The notes under the pieces were generated by a model that ran no database searches, was not told the DNA's origin, and worked only from the letters and a program-made list of their open reading frames with translations. DNA of 64,000 nt. It comes from Candidatus Latescibacterota bacterium. Its GTDB lineage: Bacteria; Latescibacterota; UBA2968; UBA8231. Numbering within the stretch: position 1 is the stretch's first letter; each line of letters begins with the position of its first letter. Location: contig RKRN01000109.1 in NCBI GenBank assembly GCA_007571365.1, forward strand, positions 31,101 to 95,100, read 5' to 3'. This document shows, one piece after another, positions 1,597-31,292 of the stretch. Position numbers and translations under genes: made by a program.

Positions 1597-2526
1597 TTAT
1601 CTGTTTAGAGCGCGTAGATAACCCCGCGTTCGGCTAGACCAGAACAAATAACTAAAAAACAGATCCGGGACATAGGTTTTCACAAGAAAGCGAGTCACCC
1701 AGCGAATGGGGTAGTGAATCGGCGACAATAAGGCTAGCTGGAGCGCGAGCCGCCGAGGAGAAAAAGCAGCCGCCTTGATAAAGTCTAGCTGGAGTACGGC
1801 GTCAAGCTCGCGATGCTTTTTTAACAGGATGGGGATTGACATGCTGCCGTAGGTTTGCATCAGACGGCAAAGCGGTTCCAACGAACGCAAGTGATTGTGG
1901 TGTGACAGGGCTTCAGGGGCATAGTAAAGCGGAATACCTGCCAAGTGGAGGCGATACCCTAATTCTAGATCTTCGCCGCCATAAGCCGTGAGGTCCTCGT
2001 CGAAAAATCCCACGCGCAGCAGGGACAACCGGCGAACCGAGGAGTTGCCGGTGACAAAGCACTTGAAAGGTATGGTCTTATCCGCATCAACCCTATGGAC
2101 CCCCCTCCCTTCGAGATAGCGAGTCAGGGAGGTAGCGGGAATTTCACTGGCAAAGCGGATATTGCCGACAAAAACGGCTTCCGCGTGGTTTTGATGCCGT
2201 TGGGCATGGGCGCGGAGAAAATTTGTGCCGACGGTCATGTCGCTGTCGAGAAAGACGACGATATCGCCGCTGGCGACCCGCAGGGCTGCGTTGCGCGCCC
2301 GGGCGCGTCCCTGATTGTGTTCGTTGCGGAGGAGTTGAAACTCTAACGGCGCGACCGCCGCATGTAGCCGCTCAGCATCCAAATCGGGGGAGGCATCGTC
2401 CACTACGATGATTTGGGTCGCTTCGTGAGGGTAATCTTGCTTCGACAGGCTCTTGAGTGCTGCTTCAAGATGCCCAGGCTCGTCATAGGTTGGGATTACG
2501 ACGCTAAGCGTCAGCGGGGTGCTCAT
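1597..2526 (-). CDS. Glycosyltransferase family 2
   Basis: SVVIPTY, VVDDAS, ARNAA, FLDSD, GGEDLELGYRL. Confidence 0.92.
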   Translation of the reverse strand: MSTPLTLSVVIPTYDEPGHLEAALKSLSKQDYPHEATQIIVVDDASPDLDAERLHAAVAPLEFQLLRNEHNQGRARARNAALRVASGDIVVFLDSDMTVGTNFLRAHAQRHQNHAEAVFVGNIRFASEIPATSLTRYLEGRGVHRVDADKTIPFKCFVTGNSSVRRLSLLRVGFFDEDLTAYGGEDLELGYRLHLAGIPLYYAPEALSHHNHLRSLEPLCRLMQTYGSMSIPILLKKHRELDAVLQLDFIKAAAFSPRRLALQLALLSPIHYPIRWVTRFLVKTYVPDLFFSYLFWSSRTRGYLRALNR

Positions 2527-3638
2527 GCTAGGGTTTCGTAAAGCTGGGTGAGTTGAGCGGCTTCTCGTTCCCAGTTATAGTGCCGTGCCGCCTGCAAACT
2601 CGCCTTGGCGTACGCCTCTCGCTGCGCTGCATTATCTAAAAAAGAGGCGACCTGCGCTCGAATGGCCGCTATATTGGTTGGGTTGACCGTAGCCCCGATA
2701 TGCGTTTCGCGGACGATGCGCTCCATTTCAGGAAAGTTGCTGGCTAAGACCGGCAGCCCGGCCATCATATACTCGAAAAGCTTGTTGGGCAGAGAGTAGT
2801 AGAAGCTCTTGCCCGTGCCTTTGATCAGACACAGGCCCAAGTCGGCCGAGCAAGTATAATTGTGAAGTTGGTAAAAGGGCACCCGGGAAATAAAATAGAC
2901 CCGATCCTCTAGGCCCTCAGCGCGAACTTGGTTCCGCAGGGCCTGTTCACTCGGCCCATCCCCAATTAGCACTAGGGCGGCGGCAAGCCCTGCGGTGGCC
3001 TCAATTTGCTCGCGCAAGCCGTTTTCGGTGAGAAATCCTCCTTGATAGAGAACAACGGGACGATCATCGGACAAGCCCAGTGTTTCGCGTATCAGGTTGC
3101 TTTGGACCTTGTGGCGGAATAGCGGCAAATTGCGCAGAACGACGACCTCGTCAAGGCGGTAACGCTCCCTGAGCGATTGGGCAATAGACCCGCTGACGGT
3201 TATGACGCGATCTACTCGTCTTATCAGCCGCTGCTCCAGCAAACGCCAGCAGGACCGCATCAGCGGCCGGTTGACCAGTGAAGATTGTTCGGTCCAAAAT
3301 TCGTGTGCGTCATAGACGATGGGCAGATCTAGTCGCTGTGCAGCTCGCACTGCTGGCCAGAGTGAGTCTAAGTCGTGTGCGTGATAGGCATCCGGCTGGG
3401 TCTTGACGAGCAGAGGATAGGCCCGTTGCCAAAAAAAAGGATAGAGGCGGCGCAGCGAGCGGCTCCGGTCTAGCGGAATCGGGTAGATTTCAAAATCGTC
3501 CCATCCCTTGAGTGGGGCTAAGTTAAAAGAGGAGGCGACAATGACGACTTGGTGACCAGCGCGGCGCAGCGAAGTAGCCTCTCGGTAGATGCGGTAGTCG
3601 AAATTCAGGTCGGTGAAAGCGACCATACAGATACGCAT
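2523..3638 (-). CDS. Glycosyltransferase family 4 (GT-B)
   Basis: YDAHE, PNKLFEYMMAGLPV motifs; overlaps the GT2 start by 4 bp. Confidence 0.92.
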   Translation of the reverse strand: MRICMVAFTDLNFDYRIYREATSLRRAGHQVVIVASSFNLAPLKGWDDFEIYPIPLDRSRSLRRLYPFFWQRAYPLLVKTQPDAYHAHDLDSLWPAVRAAQRLDLPIVYDAHEFWTEQSSLVNRPLMRSCWRLLEQRLIRRVDRVITVSGSIAQSLRERYRLDEVVVLRNLPLFRHKVQSNLIRETLGLSDDRPVVLYQGGFLTENGLREQIEATAGLAAALVLIGDGPSEQALRNQVRAEGLEDRVYFISRVPFYQLHNYTCSADLGLCLIKGTGKSFYYSLPNKLFEYMMAGLPVLASNFPEMERIVRETHIGATVNPTNIAAIRAQVASFLDNAAQREAYAKASLQAARHYNWEREAAQLTQLYETLA

Positions 3639-3665
3639 GATGTATAAGGAATCGGCGTAAAGGCT

Positions 3666-3703
3666 AAAAATAAAAAAGCAGCCTATCTAAAAATGGGCTG
3701 CTT
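3666..3703 (-). terminator. Intrinsic terminator downstream of the candidate ncRNA
   Basis: AAGCAGCC/GGCTGCTT stem followed by a U-rich tract on the minus strand. Confidence 0.7.
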
Positions 3704-3712
3704 ATAAAATAA

Positions 3713-3872
3713 AGAGTATGGCGGCCGGAAGGGGTAATCTTGAAACGCAAGTGAGATCCTCAAACGAGGCGGTGTGGGGAGGTAATTTTGAAGATCCCAA
3801 CGGCCCGAAAAGGGAAATCCGAGCTTCTCGTATCAAGACTTTGACCGCGTAGCGGACCGCCACACTCTGTTT
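3713..3872 (-). ncRNA. Structured ncRNA candidate (6S-like or novel sRNA/leader)
   Basis: Ends pair (AGAGUGUGGCGG/CCGCCAUACUCU); inner stems GUCUUGA/UCAAGAU and GAUCUUCAAA/UUUGAGGAUC; all three use G-U pairs only on the minus strand; flanked by a sigma70-like promoter and a terminator. Confidence 0.7.
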
Positions 3873-3877
3873 AGAAA

Positions 3878-3906
3878 AAAATACACACGCTAGATTGTGT
3901 TGTCAA
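3878..3906 (-). promoter_or_regulatory. Sigma70-type promoter of the ncRNA
   Basis: TTGACA-17 bp-TATTTT with TG immediately before the -10 box. Confidence 0.7.
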
Positions 3907-3943
3907 GCGGAAAAATGGATCTAAAGAAAATGCCAACAGAGTC

Positions 3944-3972
3944 TTGCACACTTACAAGTGTGTGCGTATCTT
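3944..3972 (+). promoter_or_regulatory. Promoter of the XRE gene with overlapping palindromic operator candidate
   Basis: TTGCAC-17 bp-TATCTT; palindrome CACACTT-AC-AAGTGTG at 3947-3962. Confidence 0.55.
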
Positions 3973-4011
3973 TTGGCAGAGAATGGTTAAAATAATTCAG
4001 AGGGACCGCAC

Positions 4012-4545
4012 ATGCAGTTTGCAGAAATGATCAAGAAGGCCCGACGACAAGCCCACCTGAGCCAGCAGGGATTGGCCGGACAACTCGTGACGGCGCGAAG
4101 GCCCAAGGGCGTATGGGCAACCTATATAGGACAAATTGAGAAAGGGGAGAAGGTCCCTTCCGACGAAGTGTGTCTCAAGTTGGCCGAGGTTTTGGAACTT
4201 GACTCTAATAGATTGTTGATTGCTGCTTATGAGGCCAAGGCCAGTTCGGAGGAAGGACGTGCGCTCTATGGCAAGATGATGCGCTCGCTGTCGGATCCAG
4301 TCGTCAACAAGCTCCTGTCTAGCGAAGAGCCGTTGGACCCAGCCCTCTTGGGGATACTATCGAATCCAGAAATTTTGGCTCTGCTCGGGGATCAACCGTG
4401 GTTAGAGGCCGTTGCTCGGGCGCGCAAGAAGCAGAAGGAGCGCGATGTGTTACGCCTGCTCGCTCTGGTAGAGGCGATGGACGACAAACAGTGGGATATG
4501 ATAATGGGTATCATAGGGACTTGGAACCTAGAGTCGCCTAATTAG
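4012..4545 (+). CDS. XRE-family HTH transcriptional regulator
   Basis: IKKARRQAHLSQQGLA...YIGQIEKGEKVPS...KLAEVL HTH_3 pattern plus helical C-terminal domain. Confidence 0.88.
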   Translation: MQFAEMIKKARRQAHLSQQGLAGQLVTARRPKGVWATYIGQIEKGEKVPSDEVCLKLAEVLELDSNRLLIAAYEAKASSEEGRALYGKMMRSLSDPVVNKLLSSEEPLDPALLGILSNPEILALLGDQPWLEAVARARKKQKERDVLRLLALVEAMDDKQWDMIMGIIGTWNLESPN

Positions 4546-5024
4546 AAATCGGGTAGTTTGTACTCGCCGCGCTCAATGGCTTGCTCTAATTCTTGGTGGA
4601 AGGTGCTGTCTAGATGGGAAGTGATTTTCCAACCACCGGAATCGCGAAGAAAGTAAAAGAATGGCGACGTGCGCTCGTCGCCTAGCGTAGAGGAATCGAA
4701 GAGTAGGTAACCGATGCGCTCGTTGATGATGCGCTCTTCAGCGATTTCTCGCCGCAGTTGAGCCTTGATCTCTGCTGGCGTCTTTTGTCGCCACCGTTCG
4801 ACAAAGCTCTGACGATCTTCGCTCTCCACTTGCGAAGAACTGAAACATTCCCAAAGCAGGTCAAAGTCGCTGTTTTCTAGCGCGTACTTGTAAGTCTGGA
4901 AGGTCTGGGCCGGGTGTGAGAAGCGTTGGTCTAGGTCTTCGCTATTGCAGCCGAGGAGCAGGGCGAGACAAACAAATAGTTGTAGGGCCATTGTGTGTAG
5001 TGCAAGGATCAGTGTCTTGGGCAA
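4542..5024 (-). CDS. Hypothetical lipoprotein (NTF2-like fold possible)
   Basis: Lipobox LLLGC; GGWKI motif. Confidence 0.65.
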   Translation of the reverse strand: MPKTLILALHTMALQLFVCLALLLGCNSEDLDQRFSHPAQTFQTYKYALENSDFDLLWECFSSSQVESEDRQSFVERWRQKTPAEIKAQLRREIAEERIINERIGYLLFDSSTLGDERTSPFFYFLRDSGGWKITSHLDSTFHQELEQAIERGEYKLPDF

Positions 5025-5038
5025 CTTCAGCTACTTGG

Positions 5039-5767
5039 TCAGGTGTTACGTCTGCGTCCACCCGGAAGGGATTCAACGCTTGGTTTTTTGACTAGCGATT
5101 CGATGGCGTCGCGCAGACGAGCAGCTTCTTCGTATTCTTCGCATACGACGGCCTGCTGTAGCCGATGCCGAAGCAGGCTGAGTTCGTCTTTCTCTTTTTG
5201 GGGAGGGCGTTGAGCGTCGGCCTCTTCGGCATTCCGCTTCGGTGAGCGGACCTTGGCCGAACCGGCTTCTGCATTGAGTGCCGTGGAAATCTGCACTTCA
5301 AACTCGTAGAAGCGGTTCAGAGTGTGTTCAACATCCAAGTCGGTTTCCAAGGGCTCCAAGCCAACCTCGTCAAGCAACGCAGGAGCAACGTAGATTGGCG
5401 AACCTGTGCGCAAGGCCAAAGCGATGACATCGCTGGGGCGTGCGTCGATGTCCTTTATCGTGTGATTCTTCTCAATGACGATCCTCGCGTAGTAAATGGA
5501 GCGGCGCACGTTGTGGATGACAACTTGGCGTACGCGTATCGCAAGGGAACTGACCATAGAAGAGAGTAAGTCGTAAGAGATTGGGCGTATAGGTTCATCG
5601 TTTTCTAGCTGCATCCGAATGGCGGCCGCTTCAAATTCGCCAATGGGAATGGGCAGGAGCCGCGGGAGGTTACCGTTCTTCTCGCTCAACCATACCAAGG
5701 GCCTGTCCTCGTGCAAGTAGGGGCTAACCTTGACCACGGTCATCTCAACTAAAGAAGTAGTACTCAT
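5039..5767 (-). CDS. Bifunctional nuclease family (DUF151) with C-terminal UVR motif
   Basis: IGEFEAAAI, RPISYDL, DARPSD, EEYEEAARLRD. Confidence 0.9.
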   Translation of the reverse strand: MSTTSLVEMTVVKVSPYLHEDRPLVWLSEKNGNLPRLLPIPIGEFEAAAIRMQLENDEPIRPISYDLLSSMVSSLAIRVRQVVIHNVRRSIYYARIVIEKNHTIKDIDARPSDVIALALRTGSPIYVAPALLDEVGLEPLETDLDVEHTLNRFYEFEVQISTALNAEAGSAKVRSPKRNAEEADAQRPPQKEKDELSLLRHRLQQAVVCEEYEEAARLRDAIESLVKKPSVESLPGGRRRNT

Positions 5768-6384
5768 TAGTCATCCCCATTAAGACGACTAATCTCGTCG
5801 CGAAGCCGTGCGGCCTCCTCGTAGATTTCTTCGGCAACCGCTTGATGCAGGCGTCTTTTGAGTTGTTCTAGCTGATTGACGGCTGATGTAGTGATGGTCG
5901 AGTACTCTTCTCGCGGTGCGGCCACGGATTTGGTGATGGCATTAACTTCAGCCGTAACCCATTCATCGTCGTCAGAAAGAACGCATCCCACGTCTTTGAG
6001 TACCTTGACGGCAGCGTAGATCGGTGCGTCAAAGCGCAAGGCTAGGGCAATTGCATCGCTGGGACGTGCGTCGAATGTATGAGCCTTGCCCTCGTCGTCA
6101 ACGAGGTGAATATCAGCGTAGTACGTTCTTTCGCGTGAGTTAAAGTCCGTAATTTCGACCCGGATTATCCGGGCGTCGACGTGGGCGAGAATCTGATGGG
6201 CTAGATCGTAGCTGATGGGGCGTACAGGTTGACGCCTGCTGTGGGCTGTGGAAATGGCGGCCGCTTCAAAGCGGCCGATGACAATGCGCAGATAAGAGTT
6301 GCCTTCGACTTCTTTGAGTACTACTTCGGGGTATAAAGATAGAGATTTGTTGCTTAAAACCCCCTTGACGTCCATCAGGACCAT
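5767..6384 (-). CDS. Bifunctional nuclease family (DUF151) with UVR motif, tandem paralogue
   Basis: IGRFEAAAI, RPISYDL, DARPSDAIALA, YEEAARLRDEI. Confidence 0.9.
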   Translation of the reverse strand: MVLMDVKGVLSNKSLSLYPEVVLKEVEGNSYLRIVIGRFEAAAISTAHSRRQPVRPISYDLAHQILAHVDARIIRVEITDFNSRERTYYADIHLVDDEGKAHTFDARPSDAIALALRFDAPIYAAVKVLKDVGCVLSDDDEWVTAEVNAITKSVAAPREEYSTITTSAVNQLEQLKRRLHQAVAEEIYEEAARLRDEISRLNGDD

Positions 6385-6641: not shown

Positions 6642-7313
6642 TTACGTTTCGTCAATTAGTTTTTGCTGCAGGAGCACCACGGCTTTTTCGATGCGGGCTA
6701 GCTCGATGCGTTGCGCTATGAGGCGAAAGAGCAGCAGGAAGAAAGCCACGCAACAGATCCACTTGGTGTATTGCATCGTCGGCTCAAGTTCTATATTGCG
6801 CGGCGGGTGTAGCTGTTGGTCGGCGGCCCACAGATCGACAGCATAGTACACCAAAGGAACGTTGGCGAAGGCGAGAATGCCCAATACAGCACTGATGCGC
6901 TGTACCGGAGTAGAGTTAGCCCCGTATCCCCGCACCATTAGGTAGGCCACGTAGATGGTGAAGGTAATCAGCATGGAGGTCAGACGCGGCTCCCACCGCC
7001 AGTAAACTCCCCAGATGGGCTTGGCCCACAAGGGGCCTGTGATCAGCACGATCAACGCAAAAATCACGCCCAATTCGGCTGAGCACAGTGCTAGGCGATC
7101 CCACTTGTCTGTGCGCGTACGCAGATACTGTACGCTGCCGACGAATACCAGAAAAAAGGCCAAAAACGAAGAAAACGCCGCTGGCACGTGAAAGTAGAAG
7201 ATTCGCTGGACGACTCCCATTTCTTTTTCCGTGGGGACCCACAGAAAAATCGCGCCCAAGGCGACGAGCATGACCACGAAAGTCAAACAGGAAAATGGGA
7301 CTGAACGCATCAC
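6642..7313 (-). CDS. ccmC: Cytochrome c biogenesis protein CcmC
   Basis: FYFHVP and WAKPIWGVYWRWEPRLT (WWD motif). Confidence 0.95.
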   Translation of the reverse strand: MMRSVPFSCLTFVVMLVALGAIFLWVPTEKEMGVVQRIFYFHVPAAFSSFLAFFLVFVGSVQYLRTRTDKWDRLALCSAELGVIFALIVLITGPLWAKPIWGVYWRWEPRLTSMLITFTIYVAYLMVRGYGANSTPVQRISAVLGILAFANVPLVYYAVDLWAADQQLHPPRNIELEPTMQYTKWICCVAFFLLLFRLIAQRIELARIEKAVVLLQQKLIDET

Positions 7314-7987
7314 TCCTCGATTGCGTACTCAAAAAGCATTAACGATAGCACCGTGAAAACCACCGCGTACACCCCCAACATCTGCAGGTGCGCGAAGAGC
7401 TTTTCGCCATAGTCATTGGCCAGCACTAGCCCCGTCGCCTCCACGCAGGAAATCAACGCCGGCAAGAGCATGGGCAAGAGCAAAAGGGGCAGCATCAACT
7501 CGCGCAAACGCATGTTGTTCGACAACGCCGCAAAAAGCGTACCCGCTGACGCCATACAAGCTGATCCCAAGACGAAGACACCCAACAGGGGTAGCAAGAA
7601 AAAGCCTAAAGACAGATTAAAAAAGAGTGCAAAAAAGGGCAAACTTAGAAGTTCGATTATTAAAAGAAAAACAAAATTGCCCAGCATTTTACCTAGGTAT
7701 ATGGCCCCGCGATCACCCGGCACTAATAGCAACGCGTCGAGCGCGTCGTTGTCTCGTTCGTCAGTAAAAGAGCGGCTCAGACTGAGTAGGCTGGCGAAGA
7801 CATAGGACGACCACAGGGTCCCAGGTCCGATCTCGCGTAGAGCACCCCCACCTAAATCGAAGGAAAAGTTGAATACCAGCAACATTAACAATATAAAGAA
7901 GACCATAGGACTGAGACGCGCCTTAGTGCGCCACTCGGCCTTCAGGTCCTTGTGCAGTATTGCCAGCGTACGCCCTAAAAAGCTCAT
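7310..7987 (-). CDS. ccmB: Heme exporter membrane protein CcmB
   Basis: KDLKAEWR, F.DE...LDAL, LLPLLLLP; position in ccm operon. Confidence 0.93.
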   Translation of the reverse strand: MSFLGRTLAILHKDLKAEWRTKARLSPMVFFILLMLLVFNFSFDLGGGALREIGPGTLWSSYVFASLLSLSRSFTDERDNDALDALLLVPGDRGAIYLGKMLGNFVFLLIIELLSLPFFALFFNLSLGFFLLPLLGVFVLGSACMASAGTLFAALSNNMRLRELMLPLLLLPMLLPALISCVEATGLVLANDYGEKLFAHLQMLGVYAVVFTVLSLMLFEYAIEE

Positions 7988-8712
7988 GGGTTGGCGTCGA
8001 GATAAGGGGCACAGAGTGTGCGCAGCCGATTAGAACCTTCCGTTAGGATTTGGTCCAAGCACCATTGACCGCGTTCGATCACCAGTAGGCGATCTACTAG
8101 GCCTTCGGCTTCACCGAGGTGATGCGTTACCAAGATGCAGGTGCGCCCTTCTTGACGAAAGCGACGCAAGAGGCGGTGCAATGCAGCACTGGCACTTGCG
8201 TCGAGGCCGGTAAACGGCTCGTCAAGCAAGAGAATAGAAGGATCATGCAGGATGGCACGAGCAATGGCCAGACGCTGTTTCATACCGCGGGAGAACGAAC
8301 CCACGCGCTGATCGAATCGCTCGTTCAGACCAACAACCGCTAAGGCCGCCGCGAGCCGTTCACTAGGGTTATCCAGGCCGTAGAGTTGGGCGAAGAAACG
8401 CAAATTCTCTCTCGCCGTCAGTTCGTCGTAAAGCAAGGTTTGATGCGAGATCAGGCCGATTTCTGCCCGCGCCTCGGGAATGCGTTGGGGATCGAGACCG
8501 TTGATTTTCACGCTCCCCGCCGAAGGTCGGCAGAGGCCGGCCACCAACCGCAATAGGGTACTCTTGCCCGCACCGTTGGCACCAACGAGCAGTGCCACTT
8601 GCCCACGCGGGATGACCAGATCGATGGGATGCAGGGCTGTGTGGATACCGAAGCGTTTAGCAGTGCCCGCTAGGACGATGGCATCGTCTCCACTCATCTC
8701 ATCACACATCAA
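7984..8712 (-). CDS. ccmA: Heme exporter ATP-binding protein CcmA
   Basis: GANGAGKST, FSRGMKQR, LLDEPFTGLD. Confidence 0.93.
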   Translation of the reverse strand: MMCDEMSGDDAIVLAGTAKRFGIHTALHPIDLVIPRGQVALLVGANGAGKSTLLRLVAGLCRPSAGSVKINGLDPQRIPEARAEIGLISHQTLLYDELTARENLRFFAQLYGLDNPSERLAAALAVVGLNERFDQRVGSFSRGMKQRLAIARAILHDPSILLLDEPFTGLDASASAALHRLLRRFRQEGRTCILVTHHLGEAEGLVDRLLVIERGQWCLDQILTEGSNRLRTLCAPYLDANP

Positions 8713-22161: not shown

Positions 22162-22236
22162 AGCCCGGTCGTTCAATTGGTAGGACAACGGATTTTGGTT
22201 CCGTTTATCGAGGTTCGAGTCCTCGCCGGGCTGCCA
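22162..22236 (+). tRNA. tRNA-Gln(UUG)
   Basis: Acceptor AGCCCGG/CCGGGCT, anticodon arm ACGGA-TTTTGGT-TCCGT, GGTTCGAGTCC, encoded CCA. Confidence 0.96.
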
Positions 22237-28515: not shown

Positions 28516-28614
28516 GGGAGCGGATGTGTGCCTGGTGGCTGCCGCGGACTTCAAATCCGTTGCGGCGTAGCGAGAGTTGCGCTGGGTGGGTTCGATTCCC
28601 ACACGTTCCCGCCA
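28516..28614 (+). tRNA. selC: tRNA-Sec(UCA)
   Basis: GGACTTCAAATCC anticodon arm, long variable arm, GGTTCGATTCC, acceptor GGGAGCG/CGTTCCC, GCCA end. Confidence 0.93.
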
Positions 28615-28649: not shown

Positions 28650-31292
28650 ATGAAATGGACTTTGGCAGCGGTGTTGTTGATGGGGAGACTGGCGTGGGCG
28701 CAGGACACGGCGGTAGTGCCAAGTATATCCGGGACAATTCCGACGGAACGTCCAAGTGAGAACATCGCGCTAGGGGCGAGCTACACGATAGAGCCGAGCC
28801 CGAATTACGGGCTTTGCTCGGACCTTGGTGATTACGAGCAGCTGACGGATGGGGTCTATACGGAGGGCTATTTCTGGGCTCAGTTATCGACCGTGGGCTG
28901 GCAGGAAAAGACCCCTGCAATCCTGACGCTAGACTTGGGTACGGTGAAACCGATACGAGGAGTGTCGTTCCACACGGCGGCGGGTTTTGCGGACGTGAGG
29001 TGGCCACTGACGATCCGCATCCTCGTGGCGGGTGAAAACAGAGAATTCCATGAAATCGGGGACTTGGTGCAGTTGAGCGCAGAACAACACGGTCCGTTCG
29101 TACCGACGAAGGCGAGCGATGCCATGTGGGCCCAAGACGGCGCGAGTTTCAATGAAGCCGAGATACACCATTATTACGATCTCCACCGGGATCGCTACCC
29201 ACCGAAGCTCACCGCCGAAGTGCGTCAGCAGATCCTCCGCGACCTCGACGAAGAGCGCGCCGCTAAGTATGGGACCTATCGGTACTGGACGGACCGGTTG
29301 CGGACGCACGGCCGCTATGTCAGCCTAGTTGTGTGGAACGAGCCGTATACGTTCGTGGACGAGATTGAGGTCTACGCGGGAGAGCCGGAGTGGGTGGATG
29401 AGCCGCTGCCGGGGCCGGCCATTGCAAACGTGAAGGAGTATGTGCGTCGTATCGCCATCCAGAAAGGAATTCGGACGCGCCTTGTGCGGGACATCCAGGC
29501 CCTGAAAGAAGCGGCGGAAGAAGAGGGTGTCCCGGTGCAGACGCAGGGCGATGTGCTAGGCGAGCTGGCGTCTGTGGAAGGGGAGTTGGGGCTGGCCACC
29601 GCGTTCGGGGATGACTTCCAAGCCGTGCTGCCGCTGAATCCGTGGCACGAACGGGTGTTGCGTACGCAGGCGTGGCTCTGGCGCGCCAGAGGATTTGAAC
29701 CGCTCACGTTCTGGTGCTCGAATCTATGGGATCCGCTGCCGCTCATCGGCACGCCGGACGAGACGGCGGAATTGGCCGTTGAGGTGCATCTGATGCGCCG
29801 GGAATACCGGGCAGCGGCGTTCAATGTGAGCAACAGCAGTGACGAGCCGACGCAGGTTCTGTTCCGCTTGAGCGGGCTGCCCGGCGGCGACAATCCGGGG
29901 TATGTGACCGTTCACGAGGTGGCTTGGACGGACACGCGGTCCGGGGTGCCGGTGGCGGCGGCCCTGCCAGAAGTTGTTGCCGAGAACGGTCTGTATGCGG
30001 TGACCGTGCCCTCGGGCATGACGCGGCAGGTGTGGCTGACCTTCCAGCCGACGGACGTGGAGCCGGGCACCTACGAGGGCGAAGTCGTCGTGGAGTCCGC
30101 GTCCGGGGCTAGGAAATTTCCGTTGTGCATGTACCTATATCCCTTGGATTTCCCGGAGCAGCAGTCGCTACATCTGGGCGGATGGGACTATACGGATCGG
30201 GTCGGTCATTTTCGCTTTGTGACAGAGCAGAACCGGTTGGTGCTCATTGAGCACCTGCGCGAACACTTCGTCGATTCGCCGTGGGGCCTCAAACTGGTGC
30301 TGCCGCGGGGCACGCACAATGCACAGGGGGTAATGACGGCACCACCCGCCACCGACTACTTCGATGCGTGGATCGAATTGTGGCCGGATGCAGCCCAGTA
30401 CCTCGTGTTCGCGAAAGTGGGCAGTCATTTCGAGTCGTGGCCCATGGACACGCCAGAATTTACGACCGCGGTGAAGGCATGGGTGACTTTCTGGGCGGAG
30501 CATATGGTGGCGAAGGGGTTGAAGCCGGAGCAGTTCGCGCTACTGCTGGTGGATGAGCCTGACGAGCCGTGGATGGACGAGCGCATTCTGGCGTGGGCGA
30601 AGGCGATCCGCGAAGCAGACACGGGCGTCCGTATCTGGGAGGATACGAATCACCGGGACATGGACGACGCGAATCAGGAGATGATTGACGCGTGCCACGT
30701 GTTGTGCCCGAACTATTCGGCCTTCTTGAGACAGGGTGAGGACTATCGCGGCTACTATCTGAAGAAGCGAGATCAGGGGATCGGATTGGAATTCTACACG
30801 GCGTGGACGGGCCGGGTCTTCGATCCGTATGCCGGCCGCCTCATGGCGTGGACGAGCTGGCGTTATGGAGCGACGGCCATTTACATGTGGTCGCTGACCG
30901 ACACGGGTGGAGCGTCATCGTGGAACGAGTATCTCACCATCAAGGATGCGTATTCGCCGCTGTTTATCGACGAGGACTCGGTGACGGCCGGGAAACACCT
31001 CGAGGCAGCTCGGGAAGGGGTGCAGGACTACGAGTACTTCGCCATGTTGGACCGGGCGATCCGGAAGGCGTCTGCCCAAGGGAGGACGGGCCCGAAGGTA
31101 GAAGAGGCCCGTCGGTTGCTGGAGAACCTGCCGGCGAGTGTCTGTGATGCGGCGGGCCACGGGGGCGGGATTGACTCCGACCAGCTCTTGGGCGGCTTTC
31201 ACTGGTTGAACGAGAAAGTGGACCGCACGCTGGCGGACGAGGCGCGGATCCAGGTGTTGGCGGTGTTGACGGAGTTGGCCGATCACGAGTGA
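28650..31292 (+). CDS. Secreted protein: discoidin (F5/8C)-like domain plus GH123/DUF4091-like glycoside hydrolase region
   Basis: Signal peptide; NIALG...LTDG...LDLG...GRYV...DEIEVY; VDEP motif; REGVQDYEY. Confidence 0.7.
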   Translation: MKWTLAAVLLMGRLAWAQDTAVVPSISGTIPTERPSENIALGASYTIEPSPNYGLCSDLGDYEQLTDGVYTEGYFWAQLSTVGWQEKTPAILTLDLGTVKPIRGVSFHTAAGFADVRWPLTIRILVAGENREFHEIGDLVQLSAEQHGPFVPTKASDAMWAQDGASFNEAEIHHYYDLHRDRYPPKLTAEVRQQILRDLDEERAAKYGTYRYWTDRLRTHGRYVSLVVWNEPYTFVDEIEVYAGEPEWVDEPLPGPAIANVKEYVRRIAIQKGIRTRLVRDIQALKEAAEEEGVPVQTQGDVLGELASVEGELGLATAFGDDFQAVLPLNPWHERVLRTQAWLWRARGFEPLTFWCSNLWDPLPLIGTPDETAELAVEVHLMRREYRAAAFNVSNSSDEPTQVLFRLSGLPGGDNPGYVTVHEVAWTDTRSGVPVAAALPEVVAENGLYAVTVPSGMTRQVWLTFQPTDVEPGTYEGEVVVESASGARKFPLCMYLYPLDFPEQQSLHLGGWDYTDRVGHFRFVTEQNRLVLIEHLREHFVDSPWGLKLVLPRGTHNAQGVMTAPPATDYFDAWIELWPDAAQYLVFAKVGSHFESWPMDTPEFTTAVKAWVTFWAEHMVAKGLKPEQFALLLVDEPDEPWMDERILAWAKAIREADTGVRIWEDTNHRDMDDANQEMIDACHVLCPNYSAFLRQGEDYRGYYLKKRDQGIGLEFYTAWTGRVFDPYAGRLMAWTSWRYGATAIYMWSLTDTGGASSWNEYLTIKDAYSPLFIDEDSVTAGKHLEAAREGVQDYEYFAMLDRAIRKASAQGRTGPKVEEARRLLENLPASVCDAAGHGGGIDSDQLLGGFHWLNEKVDRTLADEARIQVLAVLTELADHE

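Follow-up and report, generated by a model that had tools for sequence, protein, structure and literature searches.

The locus

We analyzed a 64,000-nt stretch of DNA from Candidatus Latescibacterota (positions 31,101–95,100 of contig RKRN01000109.1, assembly GCA_007571365.1), designated here the window and numbered from its first letter, which encodes a structured RNA on its minus strand just before two glycosyltransferase genes. An initial annotation, made from the sequence of the window, had placed here an RNA of about 200 nt some 30 bp ahead of a glycosyltransferase operon, and our comparisons agree with it: the transcript spans about 206 nt and the first gene, GT4, starts at 3638, 27 nt past the U-tract. 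This is a new, abundant structured RNA, restricted to one uncultured, sponge-associated bacterial family, and its most conserved part, the apical loop L5, has an exact complement in a separately encoded small RNA (sRNA). The features of the locus are listed below, those of the RNA in the direction of transcription.

3901–3906, minus strand: −35 hexamer TTGACA, from the promoter scan; kept in the genus and in several other genera
3883–3900, minus strand: inverted repeat ACACA-N8-TGTGT within the promoter spacer, read from the sequence and alignments
3878–3883, minus strand: −10 hexamer TATTTT, from the promoter scan; the spacer is 17 nt
3666–3871, minus strand: structured RNA transcript, about 206 nt, with its start estimated from the −10 hexamer and its end from the U-tract
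3853–3868, minus strand: 5′ strand of the closing stem P1 (3868–3857 pair with 3724–3713, and 3855–3853 with 3727–3725)
3840–3833/3743–3736, minus strand: P2, helix 3 of the covariation table, 4/4 pairs compensatory
3831–3829/3747–3745, minus strand: P3, helix 4 of the covariation table, 6/6 pairs compensatory
3803–3824, minus strand: P4 hairpin (stem 3824–3818/3809–3803) with the C-rich loop L4 (3817–3810), from alignments and fold
3752–3799, minus strand: P5 hairpin, a 13-bp stem (3799–3787/3764–3752) carrying loop L5; helix 6, 10/12 pairs compensatory
3765–3786, minus strand: L5, the 22-nt apical loop of P5 and predicted docking site for the 5′ end of the partner sRNA, from alignments and complement scans
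3713–3727, minus strand: 3′ strand of P1, from alignments and the consensus fold
3666–3703, minus strand: intrinsic terminator, a hairpin at 3703–3676 (stem 3703–3696/3683–3676) plus a U-tract to about 3666, from folds; the stem covaries
2523–3638, minus strand: GT4 glycosyltransferase, the first gene past the terminator (open reading frames, domain and tblastn)
1597–2526, minus strand: GT2 glycosyltransferase, overlapping GT4 by 4 nt (open reading frames, domain and tblastn)
4012–4545, plus strand: divergent XRE-family helix-turn-helix gene, present in 41 of 54 loci

The promoter, described in the initial annotation as near-consensus, is indeed sigma-70-like (TTGACA-17-TATTTT), with 10 of 12 consensus positions matched, and it is the single promoter-like site in the region 3500–4100, where shuffled sequences gave 0.4 ± 0.6. 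The minus-strand terminator went unflagged in a simple terminator scan; nevertheless, the folds and the covariation of its stem confirm that the RNA has a terminator of its own. Both ends of the transcript are estimates, the start lying at about 3871 and the 3′ end at about 3666. The inverted repeat in the promoter spacer may be an operator. A CACA(C)...GTGTG repeat occurs both there (3883–3900, minus strand) and at 3945–3966 on the plus strand, each time between −35-like and −10-like hexamers; the second copy, which the scan flagged as a hairpin, precedes the divergent XRE gene. The repeat recurs upstream of the RNA in other genera, sometimes in tandem, including two loci without an adjacent XRE gene. 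At loci L026–L029, L046, and L049, which belong to genus g20 and to a subgroup of the genus of the window, a conserved TTGACA promoter lies about 80–85 nt farther upstream and a second similar promoter-like element adjoins the RNA; these loci may have two RNA starts or a longer 5′ leader.

Structure, strand, and covariation

The minus-strand RNA has a folding energy of −79.1 kcal/mol (z = −6.27), not equalled by any of 200 shuffles. The plus strand folds well too (z = −4.91), and therefore energy alone is insufficient to fix the strand. We assign the RNA to the minus strand because three lines of evidence agree: the alignments contain many G-U pairs that are valid on this strand only, in line with what the initial annotation had read from the wobbles in three stems; the covariance model scores 36–185 bits in the sense orientation vs. 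no more than 30 bits in antisense; and the promoter and the terminator point in the same direction.

In the consensus fold, P3, P4, and P5 meet at a three-way junction, and P1 is separated from P2 by small internal loops only. In an alignment of 54 distinct homologues, 94.3% of the cells in paired columns can pair, vs. 36–46% after sliding the partners by 1–3 columns; compensatory changes on both sides are seen at 31 of the 47 pairs, and 500 shuffles gave no values as high as those observed. This alignment was fitted to the covariance model, which favours structure, and an independent MAFFT/RNAalifold run returned the same helices with 15/47 pairs compensatory. The single-sequence folds of divergent members also agree with the consensus helices. 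The closing stem bears out the earlier proposal of an RNA whose ends pair. Sequence conservation is uneven, the 5′ strand of P1 being nearly invariant among the 54 homologues, and P3 is weakened in the sequence from the window, with 5–6 bp in its relatives.

Finer elements read from this one sequence fared less uniformly in the comparison. The hairpin CGAG-AAG-CUCG is peculiar to the sequence of the window, and the other 39 rows of a 40-sequence alignment pair its 5′ half in P3. Likewise, CCC-UUUUC-GGG marks a real pairing region that is better described as the 7-bp stem of P4 (GCUCGGA/UUCGGGC), which covaries, whereas the direct repeat (11/12; positions 3733 and 3781), though present in the window, does not persist as a repeat in other species. 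Two open reading frames of 53 and 44 amino acids that overlap the RNA were rejected as coding, since single-base indels and compensatory pair changes cross them. In two species (L024 and L025), 11 nt of the 3′ strand of P1 (GGCCGCCACA) are duplicated in tandem, and the fold can use either copy.

Distribution and genetic neighbourhood

All 54 homologues are from one family of Candidatus Latescibacterota, with a single copy per genome. In Blast comparisons, 32 of 61 related genomes, among them 28 of the 30 other genomes of the genus of the window, have one full-length copy of the stretch, any second match being a piece of just 22–31 nt. The invariant 19-mer of L5, compared with the genomes of 185,579 species, occurred at 46 loci, 40 of which are homologues, their records bearing the title Candidatus Latescibacterota or the label Gemmatimonadetes; the other six are chance matches in unrelated GC-rich genomes. 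In several records labelled Gemmatimonadetes or Gemmatimonadota the RNA is identical to that in genomes of the genus of the window, and the public labels disagree here with genome taxonomy. We derived a covariance model from 40 distinct sequences; among 151 genomes of the phylum it matched 47, all in one family (46/63 there, 0/87 in 13 other families).

The RNA is dispensable even within its family, as it is missing from five near-complete genomes (92–96% complete, two of them single-contig). Three of these (94–96%; one, two, and six contigs) belong to genus g19, whose other members carry the RNA; they keep the GT4 orthologue, and in the place of the RNA a coding gene ends 70–110 nt upstream. 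In family f2 (0/13) and in genus g23 we found neither the structured RNA nor a GT4 orthologue.

In 53 of the 54 loci, tblastn places a co-oriented GT4 orthologue (49–94% identity) directly downstream of the RNA, at 58–276 nt from the end of P1 with the terminator included, and GT2 follows in 52 of 54. The upstream slot is more variable: the 13 loci lacking the XRE gene have there a HEAT-repeat gene on the strand of the RNA. The single exception to the downstream association is genome G098, in which the RNA is intact and is not followed by a GT4 orthologue, a paralogue of 30% identity lying 2.4 kb downstream. The synteny, together with the joint absence from f2 and g23, leads us to consider the RNA an accessory element tied to the GT4-GT2 operon.

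Farther along the window, two adjacent paralogues (5039–5767 and 5767–6384) each encode a bifunctional-nuclease domain plus a UVR motif, and are followed by ccmC/ccmB/ccmA-like cytochrome c maturation genes at 6642–8712.

Coverage in metatranscriptomes

Conserved words of the structured RNA are present in several RNA libraries, and we mapped four of these on positions 3300–4300. Three sponge metatranscriptomes from two studies yielded contigs over 3723–3843 with word depths of 4,917 (X18), 4,114 (X19), and 14,302 to about 25,000 (X20), vs. 3–60 for contigs of the flanking genes from these runs. Contig depth measures expression only crudely, and the runs were found through this RNA itself. The body of the RNA, to which the high-depth contigs are confined, is 100–3,000 times deeper than the flanking genes, a difference of two to three orders of magnitude such as one expects from a small RNA that is stable and abundant. 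The fourth, a coral metatranscriptome (X12), has an even depth of about 20 in genes and in spacers and is uninformative. The RNA contigs leave the terminator and the outer part of P1 uncovered. In two sponge runs from one study, the high-depth contigs are flanked by sequencing adapters, on one side at 3723/3724 and on the other near 3859, where the join is through a loose end; the two positions are nearly opposite inside P1, and these contigs may represent a processed form of about 137 nt or a library artefact.

A separately encoded small RNA complementary to L5

Sequence conservation peaks in L5: unlike the variable stems, it has 19 nt that 40 of the 54 distinct homologues share without change. 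The loop contains ACCUCC, which is also present at the 3′ end of the 16S rRNA from the same genome, and, as does L4, unpaired CUCCCC and UCCC-type motifs. The C-rich loop, like an anti-Shine-Dalgarno (anti-SD) sequence, that had been noticed at the outset is real and conserved. SD motifs are in use in this genome, occurring at 31% of crude gene starts vs. 8% of controls.

A G-U-tolerant scan of the same genome (G000) for complements of L5 retrieved a 15-nt stretch at positions 4914–4928 of contig C169, outside of the window, that is its sole exact Watson-Crick complement and the top match with features of an sRNA; the best complements besides it are G-rich coding stretches. No long antisense target of L5 was found in this genome, none lying within 4 mismatches of a 21-mer and none at a gene start. 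An exact 13-mer scan with the whole RNA also retrieved a 16-mer complement of L4/P4 on contig C292; it is antisense within an oxidoreductase open reading frame, with the mRNA in the same sense, and was taken as chance.

The complement of L5 lies in an intergenic element of about 55 nt (C169:4908–4957) consisting of a promoter-like TTGTTG-17-TATATT, the complementary stretch, a 10-bp GC-rich hairpin, and a run of six U residues. The simple scan flagged neither promoter nor terminator for this sRNA in the genome of the window, and we assigned both from folds and from the clearer promoters of other genera. All 30 genomes of the genus carry the element. Within the family, the exact 15-mer occurs in 52 of 76 genomes, and a reversed control pattern in none; a covariance model of the sRNA added further genera, and after removal of matches in coding regions we count a copy in 49 of 76 genomes and 8 of 18 genera. 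These copies are preceded by a TTGACA-17-TAnnnT promoter and followed by a GC-rich hairpin, with 100% of the hairpin cells paired. Among genomes at least 90% complete, the sRNA is never found without the large RNA. It has no match in Rfam 15. A divergently oriented gene for a GalE/TviC-like nucleotide diphosphate-sugar epimerase adjoins it in 15 of the 16 loci compared, which come from three genera. The stretch between the start of the epimerase gene and the sRNA promoter (L131, about 995–1075; C169, about 4794–4874) is conserved in the main group of the genus and may be the promoter or 5′ leader of the epimerase gene.

Only the stretch complementary to L5 and the hairpin are conserved in the sRNA. 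The bases preceding this seed differ by genus, lengthening the complementarity in a lineage-specific manner, up to 22 bp in g17 and g18. Overall, 15–22 nt of the 5′ end of the sRNA are complementary to L5, and duplexes of 18–22 bp are possible, with predicted energies of −34.6 to −46.4 kcal/mol; these are duplex energies of the two segments, as RNAcofold cannot represent docking into a loop and gave no intermolecular pairs. Substitutions also tend to preserve pairing. In genus g3 a C to U change in L5 faces a G to A change in the sRNA, and G-U pairs are kept with an A to G change in L5 (G118) and with C to U (G098) and A to G (G134 and G100) changes in the sRNA. On these grounds, the two RNAs probably pair in the cell, and the suggestion of the initial annotation that the structured RNA might act in trans gains support from this second conserved sRNA.

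Several other sequences resembling L5 or its complement were retrieved in these searches. Exact 15-mer matches in GC-rich coding regions (L167, L171, L173, and L195–L197), with no promoter or hairpin, were dropped as chance, as were weak model matches (L242–L249) without promoter or hairpin. Near-copies of the L5 complement in coding regions (L248, L249, L245, and others) translate to HEAAW- or YEAAW-like peptides and were treated as chance. A third locus in three species (L162–L164, in G023, G014, and G016) repeats 23 nt from the 5′ part of L5, with 22 of 23 positions identical to the window; its opposite strand reads as a complement of L5 and is followed, after 12 nt, by a 17-bp hairpin flagged as a terminator, with no promoter flagged. 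This locus may encode a second anti-L5 RNA or be a second target site.

A proposed decoy circuit and the direction of control

The model that we favour, although we consider the balance about even, is a two-RNA sponge or decoy circuit tied to glycan genes, in which the large RNA would also be the terminated leader of GT4-GT2. From the strong promoter, most transcripts would stop at the terminator and accumulate as stable RNA. The covarying 13-bp stem P5 would hold L5 open, and the 5′ end of the small RNA would dock there, such that the large RNA would be a leader-derived decoy that binds the small RNA and couples expression at two glycan-related loci. The activity of the GT4-GT2 promoter would then set the amount of free small RNA, and read-through of the terminator would supply the GT4-GT2 mRNA. 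We place less confidence in the decoy as the direction of control than in the pairing itself; like the pairing, any effect on GT4-GT2 or the epimerase is inferred. We identified no other target of the small RNA, and sequences like L5 occur in the genome of the window only at 4 mismatches.

Several observations weigh against this model. The depth values that suggest abundance are, as stated, a poor measure, and the flat coverage in the coral run may come from DNA. In genus g18, a U to A change in the sRNA leaves an internal A-A mismatch in the duplex, and G161 is mismatched at the first base of the seed. We found no partner in 10 of 18 genera, mostly those with a divergent L5, by a search that relies on similarity to the canonical seed; complements specific for the divergent loops of g6 (G159 and G035) and of G104 retrieved only the RNA gene itself and control-level matches with 3 mismatches. 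Moreover, a decoy leaves the invariant sequence of P1, L4, and the junctions unexplained, which suggests a further partner, perhaps a protein, or a function in cis. Because of these invariant parts, a reversed direction of control and a sensing leader remain real rivals.

With the direction reversed, the same pair would have the large RNA as effector and the small RNA as its dedicated antagonist, a possibility that we rate as real but doubtful. The effector could be a C-rich riboregulator that masks SD regions through L5 and L4, or a scaffold that binds protein. In its favour, the unpaired CUCCCC and UCCC-type motifs resemble those of the RsaE/RoxS class, C-rich sRNAs with unpaired UCCC/CCCC motifs in their loops and an anti-SD-like sequence (PMC2790875); ACCUCC is common to L5 and the 16S 3′ end in a genome that uses SD motifs; many features of the large RNA are conserved beyond L5; and the small RNA does not occur alone in the more complete genomes. 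However, no mRNA target stood out in the genome of the window, the complements of L5 other than the sRNA being G-rich coding stretches and no gene start being within 4 mismatches of the 21-mer, and the 19 nt of invariance in L5 equal the length of the sRNA seed, not that of an SD sequence. The likeness to RsaE/RoxS concerns only the mode of action through unpaired motifs in L4 and L5. There is no match to the family model at E up to 10, indicating that they are not homologous, and the structured RNA is about twice as long, has a three-way junction and finds its best partner in another sRNA, with no SD target found.

A possible leader function in cis

The structured RNA could instead be chiefly a cis-acting leader that senses a ligand, a protein or, in the manner of a T-box, a small RNA, and so sets read-through into GT4-GT2. 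The initial annotation had offered an attenuating leader among its options, and the part that stands is the constant position of the RNA: GT4 follows at a short distance in all loci but one, and the window has neither room nor a promoter-like site for separate transcription of GT4 between it and the RNA, which keeps a leader role alive. The joint absence of the RNA and GT4 from f2 and g23 points the same way, as does the retention of the downstream link while the upstream neighbour switches between the XRE and the HEAT-repeat gene. As for attenuation itself, inspection of folds and alignments, which was not an exhaustive search, revealed no conserved antiterminator or other pairing that would exclude the terminator, and neither the length nor the sequence of the linker from P1 to the terminator is constant. 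The depth of the RNA body relative to GT4 in the RNA contigs (100–3,000 times), the intact RNA of G098 without a GT4 orthologue after it, and the three g19 genomes with GT4 and no RNA also argue against a chiefly cis role. Additionally, synteny reaches upstream (P160 in 44 of 54 loci), and adjacency may partly reflect inherited gene order. We consider a chiefly cis-acting leader unlikely.

A specific form of this idea, which we hold to be quite unlikely, is an RNA-sensing leader, in which docking of the small RNA in L5 through 18–22 bp, while transcription is under way, would determine whether the polymerase terminates or continues into GT4-GT2. T-box leaders provide the precedent of a structured leader followed by a terminator, with a loop that pairs with a trans-encoded tRNA through a codon-sized contact. 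The present RNA is like them in this arrangement of leader, terminator, and loop pairing with an RNA encoded in trans, whereas it differs in having a dedicated sRNA instead of a tRNA as its partner, a contact of 18–22 bp, and no antiterminator alternative that we could find. If true, the glycosyltransferase operon would directly sense the level of an sRNA made beside the epimerase gene, by a logic like that of a T-box but with an sRNA in place of tRNA, in an uncultured phylum.

Unlikely alternatives: a shared DNA site or a 6S RNA

The complementarity between the two genes could also reflect, without any RNA-RNA pairing, a double-stranded DNA operator of 15–19 bp for one transcription factor. 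At the DNA level the identity to the antisense strand is strand-neutral, and the element of the small gene lies just past the promoter, where operators often sit; this counts against the decoy. Still, we find it improbable, given that the large RNA displays the element in a loop on a stem with 10/12 compensatory pairs, that a fully paired hairpin invariably comes after it in the small gene, and that the substitutions comprise four on one side only, each retaining a G-U pair, and one pair with changes on both sides, all of which would be unexpected for a site in DNA.

The initial annotation had also listed a divergent 6S RNA, which would sequester RNA polymerase. The structured RNA has no match in Rfam 15 at gathering thresholds in the window, nor a relevant one at E up to 10 in 3600–4050, where RF00013 and the other models of the 6S clan were equally unmatched. 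The covariance search for 6S with RF00013 was negative in the window, in its genome (91.7% complete), and in 61 genomes of the class; as a control, this model matched 4–5 of 14 named genomes. The only gathering-score matches in the window were tRNAs, one for selenocysteine at 28516–28610 (70.3 bits) and another at 22162–22233. That no canonical 6S was found in these genomes of the class leaves room for a divergent one, to which the size (a core of about 160 nt, 206 nt with the terminator), the closing stem, the high abundance and, superficially, a complementary small RNA recalling product RNAs would be suited; even the position before a co-oriented gene has its counterpart in E. coli, where the 6S gene ssrS is placed ahead of ygfA. 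Against it are the three-way junction with no large central bubble between closing and terminal stems, the restriction to a single family, unlike a housekeeping RNA, and the absence from five near-complete genomes of that family, so that we regard a 6S identity as hardly credible.

Comparison with known systems and significance

In enterobacteria, an intergenic decoy site in the transcript of the chbBC operon titrates the sRNA ChiX, coupling two sugar-related loci. In that case a short segment of an mRNA acts as the decoy, whereas here it would be the loop of a discrete, terminated, and structured RNA. Among described systems, the closest analogues are the RosA-RoxS pair of Bacillus subtilis (PMC8216469) and, with regard to the C-rich loops, the RsaE class (PMC2790875). 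RosA and RoxS are described as a sponge pair of separately encoded C-rich and G-rich sRNAs that pair with each other and are linked to carbon and sugar metabolism, in a model without an Hfq-type hub (PMC8216469), and in all these respects they are comparable to the pair reported here. Conversely, there is no relation in sequence or in Rfam, and the phylum is different. The C-rich partner is here long, structured, and in the position of a leader, the G-rich one is a minimal RNA of seed plus terminator, and the contact would be one long complementary site of 18–22 bp in a hairpin loop.

Full-text searches of the literature retrieved no regulatory RNA of Candidatus Latescibacterota, 6S included, nor, among the papers listed, a small RNA of this kind from sponge metatranscriptomes. 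The structured RNA is among the most deeply covered sequences of its locus in those metatranscriptomes, and the case is unusually complete for one built from sequences only, comprising a covered RNA, a dedicated partner, substitutions that preserve pairing, and genes for both RNAs beside genes for glycan biosynthesis. Two covariance models result from this work, one for each RNA. To our knowledge, pairs of sRNAs that bind each other are few and mainly from Firmicutes and enterobacteria. The pair from Candidatus Latescibacterota would extend them to candidate phyla related to the FCB group and to symbionts, a setting in which cell-surface glycans matter for life inside the host.

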